Assembly: GCA_033722675.1 (NCBI GenBank)
Contig: JAWVYO010000002.1
Location: 1-62,106 of the forward strand
DNA from: Acidimicrobiia bacterium
GTDB taxonomy: Bacteria > Actinomycetota > Acidimicrobiia > Spongiisociales > UBA11373
DNA: 62,106 bases
Reading direction: 5' to 3'
In this document: positions 52,688 to 62,105 of the stretch, piece by piece
How positions within the stretch are numbered: position 1 is the first letter of the stretch
Layout: the number at the start of each line of letters is the position of its first letter
Notes under the pieces: model-generated
The model's input: the letters and a program-made list of their open reading frames with translations, nothing else
Database searches by the model: none
Told to the model about the DNA's origin: nothing
Program-made: the position numbers and the translations under genes

Positions 52688-53182
52688 ATGGCGGTGAGGA
52701 TCCGCCTGACGCGCAAGGGCAAGAAGAAGCAGCCGACCTACCGGGTCGTGGTGGCCGACCAGCGCTCGCCCCGCGACGGTCGCTACATCGAGCAGATCGG
52801 GTTCTACGACCCGCGCCAGGACCCGTCGGTGGTCGACATCGACACCGAACGGGCCGACTACTGGCTCTCGAACGGTGCCCAGCCGAGCGCCGCGGTGCGC
52901 AAGCTCTTGACCATCGCCGGTGCGGTGGAGGAGCAGGCCAAGCCGGCGCCGAAGAACGTCCACGTCGTGGGCGAGGAGGCGCAGCTCGAAGCCGCCGCCG
53001 AAGAGGAGGCCCGGGCGGACGAAGCGGAGTACTCCGACGAGAGCTCCTCTTCGGAGACGTCCCAGGAGGAAGCCGAGACCGAGGCCGCCGAGACACAGGC
53101 CGAGGCCGAGACCGAGACCGAGGCCGGCGACGGCACGGCCACCGACAGCACATCCACCGACGAAGAGGGTGAAGAGGAATGA
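52688..53182 (+). CDS. rpsP: 30S ribosomal protein S16 with long acidic C-terminal extension
   Basis: [42 protein letters not shown] core, followed by a Glu/Ala/Thr-rich tail of about 85 aa. Confidence 0.9.
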
Positions 53183-54380: not shown

Positions 54381-54620
54381 TCAGTCGTCGTCCTCGAGGG
54401 ACGTCGTGGAGTGCTCGTGTCCCTCGGCGACGATCCGGTGATGGGCCTCGGTGCCGCCGCGGCCCATCCCCATGCCCTGCGAGCCGCCACGGACGTGCGT
54501 GGACTCCCGCAGGGCGCGGGCGAGGGAGTCGCCGCCGTGCCGGGCCGGTCCGGTGCCCTTCGCGTCGCGGAACGACCGCCAGAAGGCCTCGAGTCGCCAC
54601 CAGATTCGCATGCGCGTCAT
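54381..54620 (-). CDS. Small hypothetical protein (79 aa), translationally coupled to the upstream GNAT gene
   Basis: The ATG overlaps the GNAT stop (ATGA). Very high G/C third-position bias. Trp/His-rich with an acidic C-terminus. No family recognised. Confidence 0.5.
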   Translation of the reverse strand: MTRMRIWWRLEAFWRSFRDAKGTGPARHGGDSLARALRESTHVRGGSQGMGMGRGGTEAHHRIVAEGHEHSTTSLEDDD

Positions 54621-55129
54621 CGGAGGGGTGCGGTCTCCCACACGCCGTGGAGGAGCCCGTTGCGTGCTATCGGGTCGGGCCGACGCTCCATGCCCAGCCG
54701 TTCGGCCACGGCGATCGACCGCGTGTTCTGGAGGGCGATGTCGGCGACGACGGCGTCGAGGCCGAGGGTCTCGAAGGCGTGGTCGAGGATCCTGCGAGCG
54801 GCCTCGGTCGCGTAGCCGCCGCCCCAGTGGTTCCGGGCGAGGTGCCATCCGACTTCGATCTCGCCACCCGGCCGGGGGACCGGCTGGAGGACCACGTCGC
54901 CGATCACGTCGCCGGTCGATCGACCTCGGAGCAGCCACCAGCCGGTGCCGTCGGGGGCGAAGGGGCTGCGGCCGAGCAGGTCGGTGACCAGCTGTCTCGT
55001 GTCGTCCAGCGTGGGCCGGTGGCCCCACCAGATCACCTCCGGGTCGCCCCAGACCACGTGCAGCTCGTCGGCGTCCCCGGGTCGCAGGGGAGCCAGGTGG
55101 AGGCGATCGGTGTGGAGGACGGGCTGCAC
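54617..55129 (-). CDS. GNAT family N-acetyltransferase (RimJ/RimL-like)
   Basis: TDRLHLAPLRPGDADEL...IEVGWHLARNHWGGGYATEAARRILDHAF...NTRSIAVAERLGM. GTG at 55127-55129 is taken as the start. Confidence 0.85.
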   Translation of the reverse strand: MQPVLHTDRLHLAPLRPGDADELHVVWGDPEVIWWGHRPTLDDTRQLVTDLLGRSPFAPDGTGWWLLRGRSTGDVIGDVVLQPVPRPGGEIEVGWHLARNHWGGGYATEAARRILDHAFETLGLDAVVADIALQNTRSIAVAERLGMERRPDPIARNGLLHGVWETAPLR

Positions 55130-55162
55130 GGGGTCAGCGTACGGCCGGGTAGCGTCCCGGGC

Positions 55163-55603
55163 ATGGCCTTCCAGCCCGACCCCGATCGGATCGTCTGGCG
55201 GCTCCACCTGGCGGCGTCGCCGGAGCGCGTGTTCGCCGCCATCGACTCCGCCGAGGGGCGGGCGGGGTTCTGGGCCGAGGAGGCCGTCGAGGAGGACGGC
55301 GTCATCACGTTCTCCTTTCCCGGAGGTGAGACCTGGCGCGGTGCCGTCGTGGTCCGGGAGCCCCCGTCGCGCTGGGGCGTCGAGTACTTCGGATCGGTGG
55401 CCGAGTTCCACCTCGAGTCCGACGGGTCCGGTGGGACCGATCTCACGCTCGTGGACACGGGCGTCGCCCCGGACCACCGCACCGAGGTCGCGGCCGGGTG
55501 GCTCAACGTGCTCCTGCCCCTCAAGGCGTGGGTCGACCACGGTGTGGACCTGCGGAACCACGATCCGCGCCGGACGTGGGCCCATGGCTATGTCGACCAG
55601 TGA
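55163..55603 (+). CDS. SRPBCC / Aha1-domain (AHSA1-like) protein
   Basis: IVWRLHLAASPERVFAAI...GFWAE...GGTDLTLVDTGV...GWLNVLLPLKAWVDHG. Confidence 0.8.
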   Translation: MAFQPDPDRIVWRLHLAASPERVFAAIDSAEGRAGFWAEEAVEEDGVITFSFPGGETWRGAVVVREPPSRWGVEYFGSVAEFHLESDGSGGTDLTLVDTGVAPDHRTEVAAGWLNVLLPLKAWVDHGVDLRNHDPRRTWAHGYVDQ

Positions 55604-55760
55604 CGTCGGTGATCGAAGGGGGAGGAGATCGGGACGGCGAGTCGTCGGGCAGGGCCGGATGACGAACAGGACCCTTCCGTGCTCCGCATCGCTCCCATCG
55701 CGCTCGCCGTCCCCGACGCGGACCTGATCGAGGCCTTCCGGATCCGGCTGTAGACGCGAC

Positions 55761-55785
55761 GACGCCCCGGCGGGACCGGGGCGTC
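55761..55785. terminator. Perfect 10-bp GC hairpin between convergent genes (bidirectional terminator candidate)
   Basis: GACGCCCCGG-CGGGA-CCGGGGCGUC lies 21 nt beyond the gap stop codon (55806) and downstream of the AHSA1-like gene. Confidence 0.55.
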
Positions 55786-55805
55786 GAAGCGGTTCTCAGC
55801 GGATC

Positions 55806-56822
55806 TCAGACCGGCGCGGCCTCGAACTCCATGAGCCGCTCGATGAGGTCGACCACGCGGTTCGAGTAGCCCCACTCGTTGTCGTACCACGACAGCACCT
55901 TCACCTTGTTCCCGCCGAGCACCTTCGTGGACTCGGCATCGAAGATGCTCGACGCCGGGTTCCCGATGATGTCGGTGGAGACGAGCGCGTCCTCGGAGTA
56001 CTGGAGGATGCCCGCGAGCGGGCCGTCGGCCGCCGCCTTCACGGCGGCGTTCACCTCCTCGACCGTCACGTCGCGCTGCAGCTCGACGACCAGGTCGACC
56101 GTGGAGCCGTCGGGCACGGGCACGCGCATCGCCATCCCGTCGAGCCGGCCGTCCAGCTTCGGCATCACCTTGCCGACGGCCTTCGCAGCACCCGTCGTGG
56201 TGGGGATGATGTTCTCGCTCGCCGCCCGGCTGCGGCGGAAGTCCGAGTGGGGCACGTCGGCGAGGCGCTGATCGTTCGTATAGGCGTGGACGGTGGTCAT
56301 GACGCCGCGTTCGATGCCGAACGCGTCGTCGAGGACCTTGGCCAGCGGCGCCAGGCAGTTCGTCGTGCAGGAGGCATTCGAGACGATGAGGTCGTCGGCC
56401 TCGAGGTCGTCGTCGTTCACGCCGAGGACGACGGTGGCGTCGAGCGCGTCCTTCGGGGGCACCGTGAGGATCACTTTCTTGGCGCCTGCTTCGATGTGCT
56501 TGGCCACCTGCTCGCGGGTCCGGAAGACGCCGGTCGACTCGATCACGACGTCGACGTCGAGCTCGTCCCAGGGCAGGTCTGCCGGGTCGCGGACGGTGAG
56601 CAGCTTGGCGCGGTTCTTGCCGGCGACGAGGTCGCCGTCCTCGACCTTCACCTCGCCCGGGAACTCGCCCATGACGGTGTCGTACTTGAGGAGATAGGCG
56701 GTCATCTCGTCGTCGGCGAGGTCGTTGATCGCCACGACCTCCATGTCGTTGTCGCGCTGGTTGATGACGCGGAAGACGGAGCGTCCGATGCGTCCGAATC
56801 CGTTGATGGCGACCCTGGTCAT
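55806..56822 (-). CDS. gap: Type I glyceraldehyde-3-phosphate dehydrogenase
   Basis: INGFGRIGR, SNASCTTNCLAP (catalytic Cys), TVHAYT, TTTGAAKAV, MRVPV and WYDNEWGYS. Confidence 0.95.
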   Translation of the reverse strand: MTRVAINGFGRIGRSVFRVINQRDNDMEVVAINDLADDEMTAYLLKYDTVMGEFPGEVKVEDGDLVAGKNRAKLLTVRDPADLPWDELDVDVVIESTGVFRTREQVAKHIEAGAKKVILTVPPKDALDATVVLGVNDDDLEADDLIVSNASCTTNCLAPLAKVLDDAFGIERGVMTTVHAYTNDQRLADVPHSDFRRSRAASENIIPTTTGAAKAVGKVMPKLDGRLDGMAMRVPVPDGSTVDLVVELQRDVTVEEVNAAVKAAADGPLAGILQYSEDALVSTDIIGNPASSIFDAESTKVLGGNKVKVLSWYDNEWGYSNRVVDLIERLMEFEAAPV

Positions 56823-57844
56823 ACGGTGACCTCCTCGGCGTCGTAGGCGGCGAACTTCTCCATGAGCTCGATGGCGCGGGCGGCGTACCCCCAGCCGTTG
56901 TCGAACCAGACGACGGCCTTCAGCATCGTCCCGTCCATCACGAGCGTGGCCAGCCCGTCGAAGATGGCCGAGTGGGTGTTACCGATGATGTCCGTCGAGA
57001 CGATGGGGTCGTCGGTGTACTCGACCACCGTGCTGTTCGACGCAGCCCATCGGACGGCGCCGTTGACGTCCGACTGGGTGACCTCGGTGTCGAGGATCGC
57101 CACGAGGTCGACGTTGGACCCGTCCGCGACCGGCACGTTGAGGGCGGATCCGCTGAGCTTGCCGGCCAGTGACGGCAGGACGTGCTCGATGATCTCCACC
57201 GAGTTCGTCGCCGTCGGGATGATGTTCTCCGCGGCGCTGCGGCTGTTGCGGAGGTCGTCACCCGGCACGTCGGCGAGCCGCTGCTCGTTCGTGAAGGCGT
57301 GGACCACCGTGTACATGACCGCGTCGATCCCGAAGCGGTCGTCGAGGATCTTGAGGATCGGTGCCAGCGCGTTCGACGTGTTCGACCCGAGGGCGATGAC
57401 CGAGTCGTGGGGATCGAGGGTGTGGTCGTTGACCCCCATCAGCAGCGTCGGGATCGTGTCGTCCTTCGGCGTGGACGCGAGGATCACCCGCCGGGCGCCC
57501 CGGTCGAGGTGGCCCTGGAGCTGATCCATCGTCCGGTGCTTGCGGGTGGCCTGGACGACGATGTCGACGCCCAGGCCGGCCCAGTCGACGTCGCCCGGGT
57601 CGGCGTGGTCGAGCATCGGGATGCGGCGGTCACCCACGACGAGGTGGCCGTTCTCGAGCTCGACCGGCTTCGGAAAGCGCCCGAACACGGTGTCGTACTT
57701 GAGGAGGTAGACGAGGGCGGCGGGGTCGGCGATGTCGACGATGGCCGCCACCTCGAGGTCGGGATGGTCCTCGAGCTGGCGGAACACATTGCGGCCGATC
57801 CGGCCGAACCCGAAGAGCCCCACGCGGGTGGGAGCGTGCGTCAT
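56819..57844 (-). CDS. GAPDH-like paralogue lacking the catalytic cysteine (probable pseudoenzyme)
   Basis: Full-length GAPDH fold (FGFGRIGR, VVHAFT, WFDNGWGYA). SNASCTTNC is replaced by ALGSNTSNA, TTTGAAKAV by TATNSVEII, and MRVP by LNVP. ATGA overlap with gap. Confidence 0.85.
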   Translation of the reverse strand: MTHAPTRVGLFGFGRIGRNVFRQLEDHPDLEVAAIVDIADPAALVYLLKYDTVFGRFPKPVELENGHLVVGDRRIPMLDHADPGDVDWAGLGVDIVVQATRKHRTMDQLQGHLDRGARRVILASTPKDDTIPTLLMGVNDHTLDPHDSVIALGSNTSNALAPILKILDDRFGIDAVMYTVVHAFTNEQRLADVPGDDLRNSRSAAENIIPTATNSVEIIEHVLPSLAGKLSGSALNVPVADGSNVDLVAILDTEVTQSDVNGAVRWAASNSTVVEYTDDPIVSTDIIGNTHSAIFDGLATLVMDGTMLKAVVWFDNGWGYAARAIELMEKFAAYDAEEVTV

Positions 57845-57976
57845 GGGTGGATGGTCCCCTTCGTTGGTGGTGCACCGTGCAGCCTATCGACTCCGTGGGC
57901 GCTGTTGGAACCGGTTCCGGTCCCGGCCGGCGGGGCCTGTCGGCGTGGCCGCCGACGCCTGATACCTTGCGGCTCC

Positions 57977-59119
57977 ATGACGTTCCCCGCCCCCGATCCG
58001 GAGTTCGCCGAGCGGTTGATCACCGGCCACGGCGACGTCGCCGGCCTCCTCGCCGAGGCGCGTCGGCTGCGCGACGAGGGACGGGGTCGCACGGTGACGT
58101 ACTCGCGCAAGGTCTTCGTCCCGCTCACGACGCTCTGTCGGGACACCTGCACGTACTGCACCTTCGCCAAGCCGCCGGGCGCCGGTGGCGAGTACCTCGA
58201 ACCCGAGGACGTCCGCTCGATCGTCGCGGCGGGCGACCGGCACCGCTGCACCGAGGCGCTGTTCACCCTCGGCGACCGTCCCGAGGCCCGCTGGCCCCAG
58301 GCACGGGCGTTCCTCGACGCCCACGGACACGCCTCCACGCTGGAGTACGTCGCGGCGATGTCGCAGCTCACCCTGGAGGAGACCGGCCTCTTCCCCCACG
58401 CCAACCCGGGACTCATGGACGACGCAGCGATGACGTTGCTCCGGCCCACGAACCCCTCGATGGGATTGATGCTCGAGAACGTCTCGCCCCGGCTCATGGA
58501 GCCGGGGATGCCGCATCACGGATGCCCCGACAAGGACCCGGTGCTGCGGATGGAGACGATCCGGGCGGCCGGGCGGGCCCGGGTGCCCTTCACCACCGGC
58601 ATCCTCGTGGGGATCGGAGAGACCCCTGCGGAGGTGATCGACAGCTTGTTCGCCCTCCGGGACGTGGCCACGGAGACGGGGGCGGTCCAGGAGGTCATCG
58701 TCCAGAACTTCCGGGCCAAGGCCGACACGCCCAAGCGCCGCGACGCCGAGCCGACCGTCCAGTACTTCGCCCGGATCGTCGCCGCGGCCCGGTGGATCCT
58801 CGGCCCCGAAACGAACCTCCAGGTGCCCCCGAACCTCACCGAGCGCTTCGAGGTCTACCTCGACGCAGGGATCAACGACTGGGGCGGTGTGTCGCCCCTG
58901 ACGATCGACTTCGTGAACCCCGAGGCCCCCTGGCCCCACCTCGACGAACTCCGGGCGCGTACCGAGGCCGCCGGCTTCCGCCTGCGGCCGCGGCTTCCGG
59001 TCTATCCGGAGTTCATCGCCGACGAGTGGATCGACGCCGGCCTGCTGCCCCGGTTGCGGGCCGCCGCCGACGCGGATGGATACGCTCTGGCTCCCCAACA
59101 GGAAGGCACCGCGGCGTGA
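57977..59119 (+). CDS. cofG: FO (7,8-didemethyl-8-hydroxy-5-deazariboflavin) synthase subunit CofG
   Basis: Radical-SAM CRDTCTYC cluster, with TVTYSRKVFVPLTTLC and VQEVIVQNF matching the CofG/FbiC N-half. ATG at 57977. Confidence 0.85.
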   Translation: MTFPAPDPEFAERLITGHGDVAGLLAEARRLRDEGRGRTVTYSRKVFVPLTTLCRDTCTYCTFAKPPGAGGEYLEPEDVRSIVAAGDRHRCTEALFTLGDRPEARWPQARAFLDAHGHASTLEYVAAMSQLTLEETGLFPHANPGLMDDAAMTLLRPTNPSMGLMLENVSPRLMEPGMPHHGCPDKDPVLRMETIRAAGRARVPFTTGILVGIGETPAEVIDSLFALRDVATETGAVQEVIVQNFRAKADTPKRRDAEPTVQYFARIVAAARWILGPETNLQVPPNLTERFEVYLDAGINDWGGVSPLTIDFVNPEAPWPHLDELRARTEAAGFRLRPRLPVYPEFIADEWIDAGLLPRLRAAADADGYALAPQQEGTAA

Positions 59120-60972
59120 TCACGTTCCTCCGACTCCGACCCGCCGACGCCGTCAGCGACGTGTGGGCGGGGACGCGTCGACGGGAGGGGACGACGACCA
59201 TCGAGGTCGACGCTCCCTCGACCGACGACGTCGCCGCCGCCCTCGAGGCCGGCCTCCTCGTCGTCGGTGGCCCCGGATCGGCGGGGGTGGCGGCGTGGGT
59301 GGTCCTCCCGGACGACGCGCGCTCGCTGTCGGACGAGGGTGTCGACGGTCGCCGCATCACCGTGGTCGACGACGGATCGGCGGAGGACCTCCTCGACGCC
59401 GCGGTCCGCAGCCGGGCCGCCTTCGTCCGGACCGGACGGAGCCGTGTGGCCGAGACCGTCGCCCTGCTGGACCTGCCCGGTGTCGAGGCATCGGTCTCGG
59501 TCTTCGTCGACTCGGTGGACGAGGCACTCGCCGCCGTCTCCGGCGGTGCGAGCGACCTCCTCCTACGCGACTGGGACACCGACTCGATCGGGCTCCTGCG
59601 CGACTCGCTCGGTGATCGGCTCCTCGTGGAGCGGACCGCCCTGCCGCCCGGATACCCGATCGACGAGGCGCGTCGCAGACTCTCGTCGACGGCGTTCTCC
59701 GCCTGGCTGGGACAGACCGACGGCTCGGGCGCGGCGCGGCCCAGGACCGAGTGGGCTCCGGGCAAGGAGATGCCGCCGCCGCTCCCGGACCGACGGCTGT
59801 CGGCCGAGTGGTCCGACGCCCGGTGGACCGACGGCGCGCCGGCCGGTGGCATGCACGGCGTCCGACCCGCGCTCGCGGCCATCCTCGAGCGATCGCTGGC
59901 CGGCCAGCGCCCCACCCGCGACGAGGTCGAGTCCCTGTTCACCGCCCGGGGGCACGAGGTCGAGGCGGTCGCGGCGGTCGCCGACCGGCTGCGTCGCGAC
60001 GCGGTGGGCGACACGGTCACCTACGTGGTGAACCGCAACATCAACTACACGAACCAGTGCTACTTCCGATGCGGGTTCTGTGCGTTCTCCAAGGGGCCCC
60101 GGTCGCTCAATCTGCGCGGGGATCCATATCTCCTCGAGGTCCACGAAGTGGCGTACCGGGCGAAGGAGGCGTGGGACCGGGGGGCCACCGAGGTGTGCCT
60201 CCAGGGCGGCATCCACCCCGAGTTCACCGGTGACTTCTACGTCGAGGTCCTCCAGGCGATCAAGCAGACCGTCCCCGGGATGCACGTCCACGGGTTCACG
60301 CCCCTCGAGGTGTGGCAGGGTGCGGAGACCCTCGGCACGACGGTCCCGGAGTTCCTCGCCACCCTCAAGGAGGCCGGGCTGGGCACGCTGCCGGGCACGG
60401 CGGCCGAGATCCTCGACGACGACGTGCGCGAGCACCTCTGTCCCGACAAGATCCGCACCGCCCAGTGGGCCCACGTCATGGTGACCGCCCACGGCATGGG
60501 TCTGCGGTCGACGGCGACGATGATGTTCGGCCACGTCGACGGCCCGCGTTCGTGGGCGAACCATCTCGAGGTCCTTCGCCGCATCCAGGAGCGGACGGGT
60601 GGGTTCACCGAGTTCGTCCCGCTGCCCTTCGTGCACATGGGCGCACCGATCTACCTGCGGGGCCGGGCCCGGCCCGGGCCGACGTGGGACGAGGTCGTGC
60701 TCGTCCACGCCGTGGCGCGCATCGCGTTCGACGGCCTGATCCCCAACATCCAGGCCTCCTGGGTGAAGCTGGGGCTCCCGGGCGGGCGGGCGCTCCTCGA
60801 TGCCGGATGCAACGACATGGGCGGGACCCTCATGGACGAGAACATCTCTCGGGCGGCCGGCGCCTCCCACGGCCAGCTGGCCACGGCCGAGGAGATCGAG
60901 GCGGTCGTGGAGGCCGCCGGGCGGGTGCCGCGCCGGCGAACCACCACCTACGAGGTGCTGGACCCGGCCTGA
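59116..60972 (+). CDS. cofH: FO synthase subunit CofH with ~250-aa N-terminal extension
   Basis: NINYTNQCYFRCGFC radical-SAM cluster at about residue 315, and TEVCLQGGIHPE. GTGA overlap with cofG. The extension keeps the same frame and has coding-like composition. Confidence 0.8.
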   Translation: MITFLRLRPADAVSDVWAGTRRREGTTTIEVDAPSTDDVAAALEAGLLVVGGPGSAGVAAWVVLPDDARSLSDEGVDGRRITVVDDGSAEDLLDAAVRSRAAFVRTGRSRVAETVALLDLPGVEASVSVFVDSVDEALAAVSGGASDLLLRDWDTDSIGLLRDSLGDRLLVERTALPPGYPIDEARRRLSSTAFSAWLGQTDGSGAARPRTEWAPGKEMPPPLPDRRLSAEWSDARWTDGAPAGGMHGVRPALAAILERSLAGQRPTRDEVESLFTARGHEVEAVAAVADRLRRDAVGDTVTYVVNRNINYTNQCYFRCGFCAFSKGPRSLNLRGDPYLLEVHEVAYRAKEAWDRGATEVCLQGGIHPEFTGDFYVEVLQAIKQTVPGMHVHGFTPLEVWQGAETLGTTVPEFLATLKEAGLGTLPGTAAEILDDDVREHLCPDKIRTAQWAHVMVTAHGMGLRSTATMMFGHVDGPRSWANHLEVLRRIQERTGGFTEFVPLPFVHMGAPIYLRGRARPGPTWDEVVLVHAVARIAFDGLIPNIQASWVKLGLPGGRALLDAGCNDMGGTLMDENISRAAGASHGQLATAEEIEAVVEAAGRVPRRRTTTYEVLDPA

Positions 60973-62105
60973 GGGGGCAGGACGGGGGGCGCCTGGCCGA
61001 GCTCGGTCACCCGGTGCCGCACCGTCACCGTGACCCGGTCGTCCGGGTCACCGGCGACCCCGGTGAGCGGCTCCAGCACCGAGGCGGGGCCGCCGACCAC
61101 CAGGTCGAGCTCGACGAGCCACGGACTGTCTTCGGCGAGCCAGACGTTGAACACCTCCACGTCGAGTCCCGCCGGGTCGACGTCGAGCACGGCCCCGAGG
61201 TCGTCGGCGTCGCCGCGGTGGCCCAGCACCCGCACCCCGTCCAGCACGTAGACGGCGGGTTCCGGTCCGACGGCGAGGTTGAGCCCGCTCACGCGCGCGT
61301 CGAGCGGCCAAGACGGGCATCGGGCGAGGAGGGCCCGCTGTGCCGTGGCCGGTCCTCCGACCCGGACGAGGTCGTCGCCCCGACGCTCCCACACGACGTC
61401 GCCGACGCGCCGCAGCTCCGTGACGGCGCCGTCGACGGTGATCGTGCAGGCGACGTCGTCGCCGTCGATCGTGCCCTCCGAACCGAAGGCGACCCGATCG
61501 TCGCCGACGACGATCCGTTCGGTGGCGAAGGCGTAGGCGGGGAGGGCCGGCGTCGCGGCCGGGGCCGGCGCGTCGACCAGGACGGCGGTGACGTGGTCGA
61601 CGACCTCCCGAGCGAGGTACTGCGCGGGGACCCGGGCGTCACCGGGGCGGTCCATGGATGCCCAGGCCACGATGCGGCCCAGCCGCACCGCCACCGTCGT
61701 CGTCGATCCCGAGGCGTCCTCGAGCACGAACCCGCTGGTCTCGTCGCCGACGGGATCGGTGGCGAACGTGGTGAGCGTCCCGTCGCCGCCGGAGCCTTCG
61801 ACCCGCTTGGCGAGATCCTCGATGCGGTCGGCGAGGAAGCGGGTGGCGCCCTCGGCGTCCGCCAGGACGTCGATGCGCACCGACGCGCCGTCGATCGCCC
61901 CCCAGGCGTCGGTGGCGATCCCGGTCCGCCGTCCGAAGCGCTCGTGATCGGCCGCCTCGTCGCCCGGGTCCGCCGCGGAGGCCGCGACGAGCATCTCGTT
62001 GGTCAGGAGCGCGGCAGAGGGATCGTCCACGAGTCGCTGCAGGAGGTCCTGGTCCAGGCTCCGGTGGCTGACGTCGGGCAACACCGGTGGCGGCGGCGCC
62101 GGCAC
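60948..62105 (-). CDS. Hypothetical protein, C-terminal part (5' end outside window)
   Basis: The ORF is open to the window edge with an Asp/Val/Ala-rich, non-shadow-like composition. It overlaps the cofH 3' end by 25 nt. No family recognised. Confidence 0.45.
   Translation of the reverse strand: MPAPPPPVLPDVSHRSLDQDLLQRLVDDPSAALLTNEMLVAASAADPGDEAADHERFGRRTGIATDAWGAIDGASVRIDVLADAEGATRFLADRIEDLAKRVEGSGGDGTLTTFATDPVGDETSGFVLEDASGSTTTVAVRLGRIVAWASMDRPGDARVPAQYLAREVVDHVTAVLVDAPAPAATPALPAYAFATERIVVGDDRVAFGSEGTIDGDDVACTITVDGAVTELRRVGDVVWERRGDDLVRVGGPATAQRALLARCPSWPLDARVSGLNLAVGPEPAVYVLDGVRVLGHRGDADDLGAVLDVDPAGLDVEVFNVWLAEDSPWLVELDLVVGGPASVLEPLTGVAGDPDDRVTVTVRHRVTELGQAPPVLPPQAGSSTS

Follow-up and report, generated by a model that had tools for sequence, protein, structure and literature searches.

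Among the most studied enzymes is glyceraldehyde-3-phosphate dehydrogenase (GAPDH), which in bacteria is regarded as a homotetramer whose subunits are identical and active. Here we describe a gene pair in which a canonical GAPDH gene (gap) is preceded by a gene for a GAPDH-fold paralogue with an altered active site. The pair is located on a stretch of 62,106 nucleotides from an Acidimicrobiia bacterium (GenBank assembly GCA_033722675.1, contig JAWVYO010000002.1, positions 1 to 62,106 of the forward strand), which is the window referred to below. The upstream paralogue is denoted here as psiGap. The name GapX was avoided because it has been used for the second, active GAPDH of Corynebacterium. 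Residues are numbered according to the B. stearothermophilus convention (Cys149, etc.), and the numbers of psiGap itself differ (Asn155 occupies position 149).

The chloroplast GapA and GapB paralogues co-assemble as an A2B2 tetramer in which both subunits are catalytic, GapB carries the regulatory element, and regulation is exerted via a C-terminal extension and CP12. Unlike GapB, psiGap has neither the nucleophile nor a C-terminal extension. Epd (GapB) of the gamma-proteobacteria is a GAPDH paralogue with a changed function that keeps the Cys/His dyad and is active. Canonical type I GAPDH (GapA, e.g., 1GD1 from G. stearothermophilus) has the same two-domain fold as psiGap and is ~48–50% identical to it, and the two share GxGxxG, Asp32, His176, Thr179, Ser148, Thr150, Asn313, and the core of the S-loop. 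psiGap differs from the canonical enzyme in the loss of Cys149, Cys153, Arg195, Gly209, and Arg231, in the change of Glu314 to Gly, in a score below the cut-off of the type I model, and in being always encoded upstream of a true GAPDH. The Cys/His dyad is required for catalysis, the Ps site consists of Thr179, Arg195, and Arg231, and the Pi site of Ser148 and Thr208–Ala210 (PMC9287727, where the GAPA/B isozymes are also mentioned).

Two further systems contain proteins that have lost catalytic residues. The trypanosomatid prozymes (the AdoMetDC prozyme and a deoxyhypusine synthase paralogue) are dead paralogues that hetero-oligomerize with, and control, a live enzyme (PMC6221367). They resemble psiGap as catalytically dead paralogues kept under selection beside the live enzyme. 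The prozymes are eukaryotic and belong to other enzyme families, whereas psiGap is operon-coupled, and its complex formation and activation of a partner are inferred. TbGAPDHL from the paraflagellar rod of T. brucei has lost the nucleophilic Cys and the substrate-binding residues with conservation of the region that binds the adenosine of the cofactor; it is poorly conserved between species and was interpreted as a relic (PMC4106842). TbGAPDHL is eukaryotic, cytoskeletal, and without linkage to gap; psiGap, by contrast, comes from bacteria, is under high constraint, and has its translation coupled to that of gap.

TbGAPDHL was the only inactive GAPDH-like protein found in the full-text literature searched, and no account of a Cys-less GAPDH paralogue from bacteria turned up there. 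psiGap is most likely a pseudoenzyme partner of a bacterial GAPDH that is previously undescribed in that literature. No NCBIfam or Pfam model separates the paralogue group from GAPDH. A search of the PDB returned no solved member of the group; the best matches were canonical GAPDHs, which scored 285 bits with psiGap and 442 bits with the profile of the group, relative to 530–570 bits for the members.

Active Site of psiGap

The two coding sequences and the segments of psiGap that are compared below are as follows.

56819-57844, minus strand: psiGap coding sequence, 341 amino acids, without Cys149, Cys153, Arg195, Gly209, and Arg231 (open reading frame, Pfam, homologues)
55806-56822, minus strand: canonical type I gap coding sequence, 338 amino acids, with all catalytic residues (SNASCTTNC, VHAYT, RRSR, TTTGAAKAV, and MRVP; TIGR01534 score)
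57791-57811, minus strand: GFGRIGR dinucleotide-binding fingerprint (Gly12–Arg18), invariant in 120 homologues
57380-57382, minus strand: AAC codon for Asn155 at the position of the nucleophile Cys149 (alignment, homologues)
57299-57301, minus strand: CAC codon for His182, the kept equivalent of His176 (120 of 120 homologues; 41 of 42 across the wider group)
57239-57292, minus strand: S-loop (Thr185–Arg202), core TN..RLADVP the same as in the partner Gap (alignment; pLDDT below 50 in the monomer model)
57245-57247, minus strand: AAC codon for Asn200 at the position of Arg195 in the Ps site (alignment; numbering via HRDLRRAR of PMC9287727)
57137-57139, minus strand: AAC codon for Asn236 at the position of Arg231 in the Ps site (alignment; Asn in 119 of 120 homologues)

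psiGap and Gap are 48% identical over 337 amino acids (BLASTP, E = 8e-111). An earlier sequence-only reading of this DNA had described the alignment as gap-free, which holds around the active site but not overall; three gap positions are found, near residues 28 and 270. The active-site columns are unambiguously aligned because there are no gaps between residues 65 and 268. The mapping of the S-loop (H190 R191 D192 L193 R194 R195 A196 R197) was checked against the numbering of PMC9287727 and an alignment to 1NQ5 and 1GD1.

Every substitution named in that reading (Cys to Asn, the second Cys to Ala, TATNSVEII, and LNVP) was verified in the alignment. The nucleophile segment SNASCTTNC becomes ALGSNTSNA in psiGap, with Asn155 in place of Cys149 and Ala in place of Cys153. 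The segment TTTGAAKAV becomes TATNSVEII. Within the Pi site, Ser148 and Thr208 are kept, whereas Gly209 is changed to Asn and Ala210 to Ser; Lys212 of the TTTGAAKAV segment is changed to Glu. For the Ps site, Thr179 is kept and both arginines are replaced by Asn (RRSR to RNSR for Arg195 to Asn200; MRVP to LNVP for Arg231 to Asn236). Also kept are His176 (in VHAFT), Thr150, Asp32, and the GFGRIGR fingerprint. The retention of FGFGRIGR and of the VHAFT histidine had been pointed out before and is seen in the alignment. The C-terminal motif WFDNGWGYA had likewise been listed as retained; it is present, but not in its simple form since it bears a conserved, family-specific change of Glu314 to Gly.

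The Gp_dh_N and Gp_dh_C domains were found in both proteins using Pfam, with E values of 7e-29 and 1e-45 for psiGap. The TIGR01534 equivalog for type I GAPDH gives 452.5 for Gap and 310.9 for psiGap, the latter below the cut-off of 367.2. psiGap therefore has the two-domain fold of a type I GAPDH, but the equivalog score, the Cys149–His176 dyad, the Ps site, and the Pi site of this class are not found. Two other assignments were tried and rejected. For an erythrose-4-phosphate dehydrogenase (NF010058/TIGR01532), psiGap scores 249 bits against cut-offs of 539 and 530 and has no Cys. For the ArsJ-associated GAPDH (NF033735), the score is 280 bits against 450, and the neighbors are gap and cofG/cofH rather than arsJ. 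A model of the psiGap monomer, calculated with AlphaFold2 from the alignment of the clade, has the GAPDH topology with a pLDDT of 90.2 and a pTM of 0.88.

psiGap is predicted to be incapable of thioacyl GAPDH chemistry, and thus of the oxidation of glyceraldehyde 3-phosphate, because the nucleophile and both arginines of the Ps site have been lost. The earlier description of psiGap as catalytically dead is appropriate for this chemistry; it goes too far as a statement of absolute deadness since conservation of the pocket leaves ligand binding or other chemistry possible.

The binding of NAD(H) on its ADP side is plausible from the conserved residues. GxGxxG, Asp37, and Asn316 of psiGap are invariant among the homologues. 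Changes in the NAD site are Asn6 to Phe or Met, Asn31 to Val, and Ser/Thr119 to Ala (Ala123). The last of these is on the nicotinamide side and is found throughout the Acidimicrobiia psiGap clade; an equivalent change of Ser to Ala loses a hydrogen bond to NAD+ (PMC4106842). The earlier proposal that the scaffold still binds NAD(H) is thus supported in part, with the ADP fingerprint kept and three residues on the nicotinamide side replaced.

Organization of the psiGap–gap Pair

The features that connect and delimit the two genes are as follows.

57881-57886, minus strand: -10-like TAGGCT, candidate operon promoter, 37–42 nucleotides upstream of the psiGap ATG (comparison with relatives)
56830-56834, minus strand: GGAGG Shine-Dalgarno sequence for gap, within the last psiGap codons, 7 nucleotides before the ATG (sequence)
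56819-56822, minus strand: ATGA stop/start overlap of 4 nucleotides with the psiGap TGA over the gap ATG, for translational coupling (the plus strand reads tcat)
55760-55786, minus strand: GC stem-loop of 12 base pairs, probable terminator without a U-tract between convergent genes (folding)

The open reading frames and the ATGA overlap are present on the minus strand, as had been noted. The genetic context of psiGap relatives was obtained from a scan of one genome per species of the GTDB for the signature peptides W[FY]DNGWGY or [AS]LGSNTSNA. At least 583 stretches with these peptides encode relatives of psiGap. The locus-level counts given here are from the best 80 of the at least 583 stretches, 76 of which extend downstream. 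A canonical gap gene is found directly 3′ of the psiGap-like gene in all 76, with the motifs SNASCTTN[CS], VHAYT, RR[SA]R, T[TS]TGAA..., MRVP, and WYDNEWGY. The two genes overlap by 4 nucleotides ([AG]TGA) in 64 of these loci and by 1 nucleotide in 6; they are separated by 1–4 nucleotides in 5 and by 24 nucleotides in the remaining locus. A motif similar to GGAGG or GAAGG is located at the equivalent site before gap in most relatives. The psiGap–gap bicistron is a dedicated and conserved unit. The suggestion that the pair is such a unit rather than part of a gap-pgk-tpiA operon is thus borne out in the 76 loci, mostly with ATGA, and also in other phyla with unrelated neighborhoods.

In Acidimicrobiia, and likewise in the window, the pair is located between an ffh-rpsP-KH-rimM block and the divergent cofG/cofH genes. 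A functional link to the biosynthesis of F420 was considered from this arrangement and was dropped because the neighbors are unrelated in the other branches of the paralogue group. A scan of the window for sigma-70 consensus promoters gave no match at the psiGap operon. The TAGGCT sequence at 57881-57886 could plausibly serve the operon as its -10 box, and TA(G/C/T)(C/G)CT appears at the same distance (~37–42 nucleotides) in 15 or more relatives (including loci L001, L003, and L006-L025). A second, TAxxxT-like motif (GGTATCA/CGTACTA) is located closer to the start of the divergent cofG. The two motifs are probably the -10 boxes of two divergent operons.

The strong hairpin that had been reported after gap was also found, although it has no U-tract. 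The 12-base-pair stem begins 19 nucleotides past the gap stop codon. A fold of 76 nucleotides at this site has an energy of -51.3 kcal/mol (z = -7.0), and none of 200 shuffled sequences was as stable. The hairpin escapes a scan of the window for consensus terminators, which gave no match after gap, because it lacks the U-tract. A convergent AHSA1-like gene is located beyond the hairpin, so the pair ends there; neither pgk nor tpiA follows gap. The sequence of the window is absent from RNA sequencing runs, and the only run with a match is a tidal-flat metagenome, from which the window derives.

Conservation of psiGap

The 120 nearest homologues of psiGap, which are 64–85% identical to it, are metagenomic, and those named by organism are from metagenome-assembled genomes (MAGs) of Acidimicrobiia or Actinomycetota. 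All 120 have Asn at the nucleophile position, Ala at position 153, and His176. Asn is found at position 231 in 119 of the 120, and position 195 is occupied by T, M, L, G, S, or N. For 24 closely related pairs of loci, psiGap has a median ratio of nonsynonymous to synonymous substitution rates (dN/dS) of 0.083, compared with 0.071 for gap. The mean p-distance across 73 species is 0.397 for psiGap versus 0.262 for gap, and psiGap thus evolves ~1.5 times faster. The value of GC3 for psiGap is 0.95, equal to that of gap, in a window with a GC content of 72%.

Across the same 73 species, 93 columns of psiGap are at least 95% conserved. Twelve columns are conserved in both psiGap and Gap, but as different residues. 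Ten of these are in active-site segments (Leu152, Gly153, Asn155, Ser157, Ala159, Ser215, Ile218, Leu235, Asn236, and Gly317) and the remaining two (Ala123 and Gly9) belong to the NAD domain. The core of the S-loop in Acidimicrobiia, VHA.TN..RLADVP, is at least 95% conserved in psiGap and identical in the partner Gap.

The loss of the essential Cys, together with the origin of the contig from a metagenome, could be explained if psiGap were a decaying pseudogene or an artefact of assembly or sequencing from a tandem duplication of gap. This explanation was rejected and retains a negligible probability. The reading frame is uninterrupted, all 120 homologues, which come from independent assemblies, have identical substitutions, the dN/dS and GC3 values are those given above, and matching stretches occur in the species-representative genomes in the numbers already stated. 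Decay, which the sequence-only reading had named as an outcome that would overturn it, was not seen. The substitution pattern indicates that psiGap is a functional and strongly selected gene and not a decaying copy.

The Wider Paralogue Group

The profile of the Acidimicrobiia clade was searched against 1.8 billion cluster representatives. Further clusters at 50% identity were obtained in which Arg231 is replaced and the nucleophile position is occupied by C, N, S, V, A, G, or P. When the profile was built from diverse members, the Cys-retaining type proved abundant, and the nucleophile was occasionally replaced by Ser or Val. Nine of the 80 loci, mostly labeled Acidobacteriota, have an intermediate first gene that keeps Cys149, His176, and Arg195 and in which Arg231 is changed to Asn, Gly209 to Trp, Tyr, or His, Ala210 to Ser, Cys153 to Ala, and Glu314 to Gly.

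The residues of 42 diverse members were compared across the group. Position 149 is N in 17, C in 12, S in 7, V in 2, A in 2, G in 1, and P in 1. Position 195 is R in 18, and the remainder are T, S, Q, N, L, G, or W. Gly209 is replaced in 41 of the 42 (N in 20, W in 11, others H, Y, T, or R), as is Arg231 (N in 35, others S, K, T, H, or E). Conserved across the group are His176 (41/42), Ser148, Thr150, Thr179, and Thr208, together with GxGxxG, Asp32, and Asn313 of the dinucleotide site. Asp186, Arg194, and Arg197 of the S-loop are each found in 42 of 42 members, and Asp282 in 41.

In a neighbor-joining tree, all of the sequences without Arg231 form one clade, apart from the canonical GAPDHs including their own partners. 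The bootstrap value for this clade is 56%, and 28% with the signature columns masked. Common ancestry of the group is likely and, because the bootstrap values are modest, rests partly on gene order and on shared derived states (Asn6 to Met or Phe, Asn31 to Val, Ser, or Ala, Cys153 to Ala, Arg231 to non-Arg, and Glu314 to Gly). From these comparisons, the Asn clade of the Acidimicrobiia belongs, as a single branch, to a larger paralogue group that has no name and extends over multiple phyla. The idea of a Cys-less clade that adjoins gap, for which a search and a phylogeny had been proposed, stands with respect to conservation beside gap; the wider group has the modest support just given, and some of its members keep Cys149.

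Among the named sources are Acidobacteriota, Planctomycetota, Candidatus Eisenbacteria, and Polarisedimenticolaceae, as well as a marine cluster of 387 members, and the group is also found in marine lineages of low GC content. Six deep branches were inspected (P0123, P0124, P0127, P0129, P0131, and P0135), with GC contents of 30–74% and unrelated flanking genes. A second GAPDH gene is located directly after the psiGap-like gene in each, usually with an ATGA junction, and its catalytic motifs are canonical as far as the contig extends over them. NCBI and JGI call the psiGap-like records (P0016, P0041, P0059, P0104, P0123, P0132, P0284, etc.) "(type I) glyceraldehyde-3-phosphate dehydrogenase" in nearly all cases in which a product name is given, and only some carry the cautious name "NAD-binding domain-containing protein". 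The type I GAPDH naming of psiGap-like proteins is a systematic over-annotation.

These residue patterns bear on whether psiGap is a neo-functionalized enzyme. Such an enzyme would use the GAPDH scaffold, NAD(H), and His176 for a direct, Cys-independent hydride transfer, with a carbonyl or alcohol that bears no phosphate as the substrate, in the pathway of Gap and without formation of a mixed tetramer. The conservation of the dinucleotide residues and of His176, Ser148, Thr150, Thr179, and Thr208 across the group is in its favor, as are the conserved replacements in the Acidimicrobiia pocket (Asn155, Ser157, Ser215, and Asn236 in at least 95%, Asn214 in most) and the existence of Cys-retaining members. 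A neutral substrate is suggested by the absence of the two phosphate sites, and Cys-independent chemistry is known from other oxidoreductases with a GAPDH-like fold. The would-be catalytic positions 149 (N/S/V/A/G/P/C), 209 (N/W/H/Y/T/R), and 231 (N/S/K/T/H/E), however, vary between the branches, and a single conserved reaction is therefore hard to reconcile with the group. In addition, Ser/Thr119, which hydrogen bonds to NAD (PMC4106842), is Ala in the Acidimicrobiia clade, and no third pathway gene accompanies the pair. A neo-functionalized enzyme is therefore considered unlikely.

Proposed Function of psiGap

In GAPDH, the tetramer core is built by the S-loop, which also lines the NAD site in the neighboring subunit. 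The varied replacements of the nucleophile, the near-universal loss of Arg231, the purifying selection, the kept oligomerization elements, and the coupling to gap are together what is expected for a non-catalytic subunit that co-assembles with the active enzyme. Our preferred reading, which is given an even chance of being correct, is that psiGap is a non-catalytic subunit made together with Gap in a GAPDH-type hetero-oligomer. psiGap shares attributes with the prozymes in that it is a paralogue of an active enzyme in the same genome (48% identical to that encoded by the adjacent gap), its catalytic residues are lost and purifying selection is kept, and at the gene level its synthesis is coordinated with that of the partner through the stop/start overlap and internal Shine-Dalgarno sequence.

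According to this proposal, psiGap and the canonical gap would be transcribed together from their own promoter. Translation of gap would be coupled to that of psiGap through the ATGA overlap and the internal Shine-Dalgarno sequence, and psiGap and Gap would therefore be made in a fixed proportion. psiGap would then replace some of the Gap protomers in the tetramer, for example as two psiGap and two Gap subunits. Contacts to the catalytic Gap subunits, and thereby their tuning, would be provided by the S-loop, Arg194/Arg197, Asp282, and the dinucleotide site, all of which are conserved in psiGap. The effect might be a hard-wired version of the half-of-sites behavior of GAPDH, or psiGap might act as a regulatory subunit that responds to NAD(H) or another ligand.

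The coupling and the S-loop also bear on whether psiGap acts as a free-standing binder rather than as a stoichiometric subunit of the tetramer. It would in this case be a sensor of NAD(H) or a metabolite, a moonlighting protein that binds RNA or protein, or a factor for the assembly or sequestration of Gap. The kept dinucleotide fingerprint and the polar, Asn-rich pocket are consistent with such a role, and TbGAPDHL provides a precedent for an inactive protein with a structural role and a possibly retained cofactor site (PMC4106842). The near-universal stop/start overlap in many phyla, however, points to synthesis in a fixed ratio, beyond co-regulation, and the conserved S-loop of the tetramer core agrees with the S-loop of the partner. 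Relics of the TbGAPDHL type evolve fast (PMC4106842), whereas dN/dS for psiGap is ~0.08. A free-standing binder is thus judged improbable.

Several points weigh against psiGap as a non-catalytic subunit. The S-loop (residues 186–203) is the only poorly defined part of the AlphaFold2 monomer model. In B. stearothermophilus, Asp282 and Arg197 reportedly bridge the subunits, as seen with interface mutants; this is a lead for the proposed contacts. Operon adjacency is also consistent with two enzymes of one pathway. The Cys-retaining sub-group, mostly from Acidobacteriota, could be catalytically competent on some substrate, as judged from its residues. Finally, the kept His176, Ser148, Thr150, Thr179, and Thr208 and the 12 clustered pocket sites look like a pocket under selection. 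This pocket is probably still used, either as a ligand or allosteric site or as a Cys-independent redox site, and the ligand or allosteric use is compatible with psiGap as a non-catalytic subunit.

A more tentative extension, which we regard as possible but somewhat doubtful, is that in several uncultured phyla the housekeeping GAPDH would be an obligate hetero-tetramer of Gap and psiGap in which the classical negative cooperativity and half-of-sites reactivity of GAPDH are hard-wired by evolution. Allosteric sensing would fall to the dinucleotide site of psiGap and to its pocket, with His176, Ser148, Thr150, and the cluster of Asn residues, and the Cys-retaining forms of Acidobacteriota would be evolutionary intermediates.

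Neighboring Genes and Related Sequences

Two genes are located between the SRPBCC gene and gap, a GNAT acetyltransferase (minus strand, ~54617-55180) and an AHSA1/SRPBCC-like gene (plus strand, ~55151-55603). They are a local insertion since the 54617-55603 interval is missing or contains another small gene in the relatives L001 and L003. The rpsP gene for ribosomal protein S16 (52688-53182, plus strand, 164 amino acids) encodes a long, acidic, low-complexity C-terminal tail that ends in DEEGEEE; the proteins of the relatives have 157–162 amino acids. The CofH homologue (59116-60972, plus strand) has 618 amino acids. Its Radical_SAM and CofH_C domains span residues 309–616, and the ~300 N-terminal residues have no Pfam match. 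The homologue in the relatives likewise has 619–620 amino acids and is found beside a separate CofG of 378 amino acids. An open reading frame of 385 amino acids (60948-62105, minus strand) has no Pfam match and runs off the end of the window. Two open reading frames without Pfam matches (~350–470 amino acids) are located at the equivalent position in the relatives, between cofH and trmD. Scans of the window with Rfam and for tRNA genes were empty.

An Acidimicrobiia-type pair is also found on contigs in MAGs labeled Kiloniellaceae or Gammaproteobacteria (L029, L043, and L052), and these labels are probably the result of mis-binning rather than transfer. The protein P0121 (2089 amino acids, not from the window) has an N-terminus similar to a signal peptide followed by GAPDH-GAPDH-PGK-like-GAPDH-GAPDH, and every GAPDH unit keeps Cys149. 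P0121 was retrieved only because its four domains sum to a high score. P0133 (1455 amino acids) resembles P0121.

Implications

A conserved multi-phylum group with a lost nucleophile and arginines, selection similar to that on gap, and synthesis locked to that of gap implies an unrecognized layer of GAPDH architecture or regulation. The lineages concerned, which are abundant in the environment, are the Acidimicrobiia, the Acidobacteriota, and marine groups. Since the psiGap genes are annotated as type I GAPDH, GAPDH is counted twice in metabolic reconstructions from MAGs. The pair also offers a natural system for the effect of a "dead" protomer on the cooperativity of the tetramer, its redox sensitivity, and its response to NAD(H).

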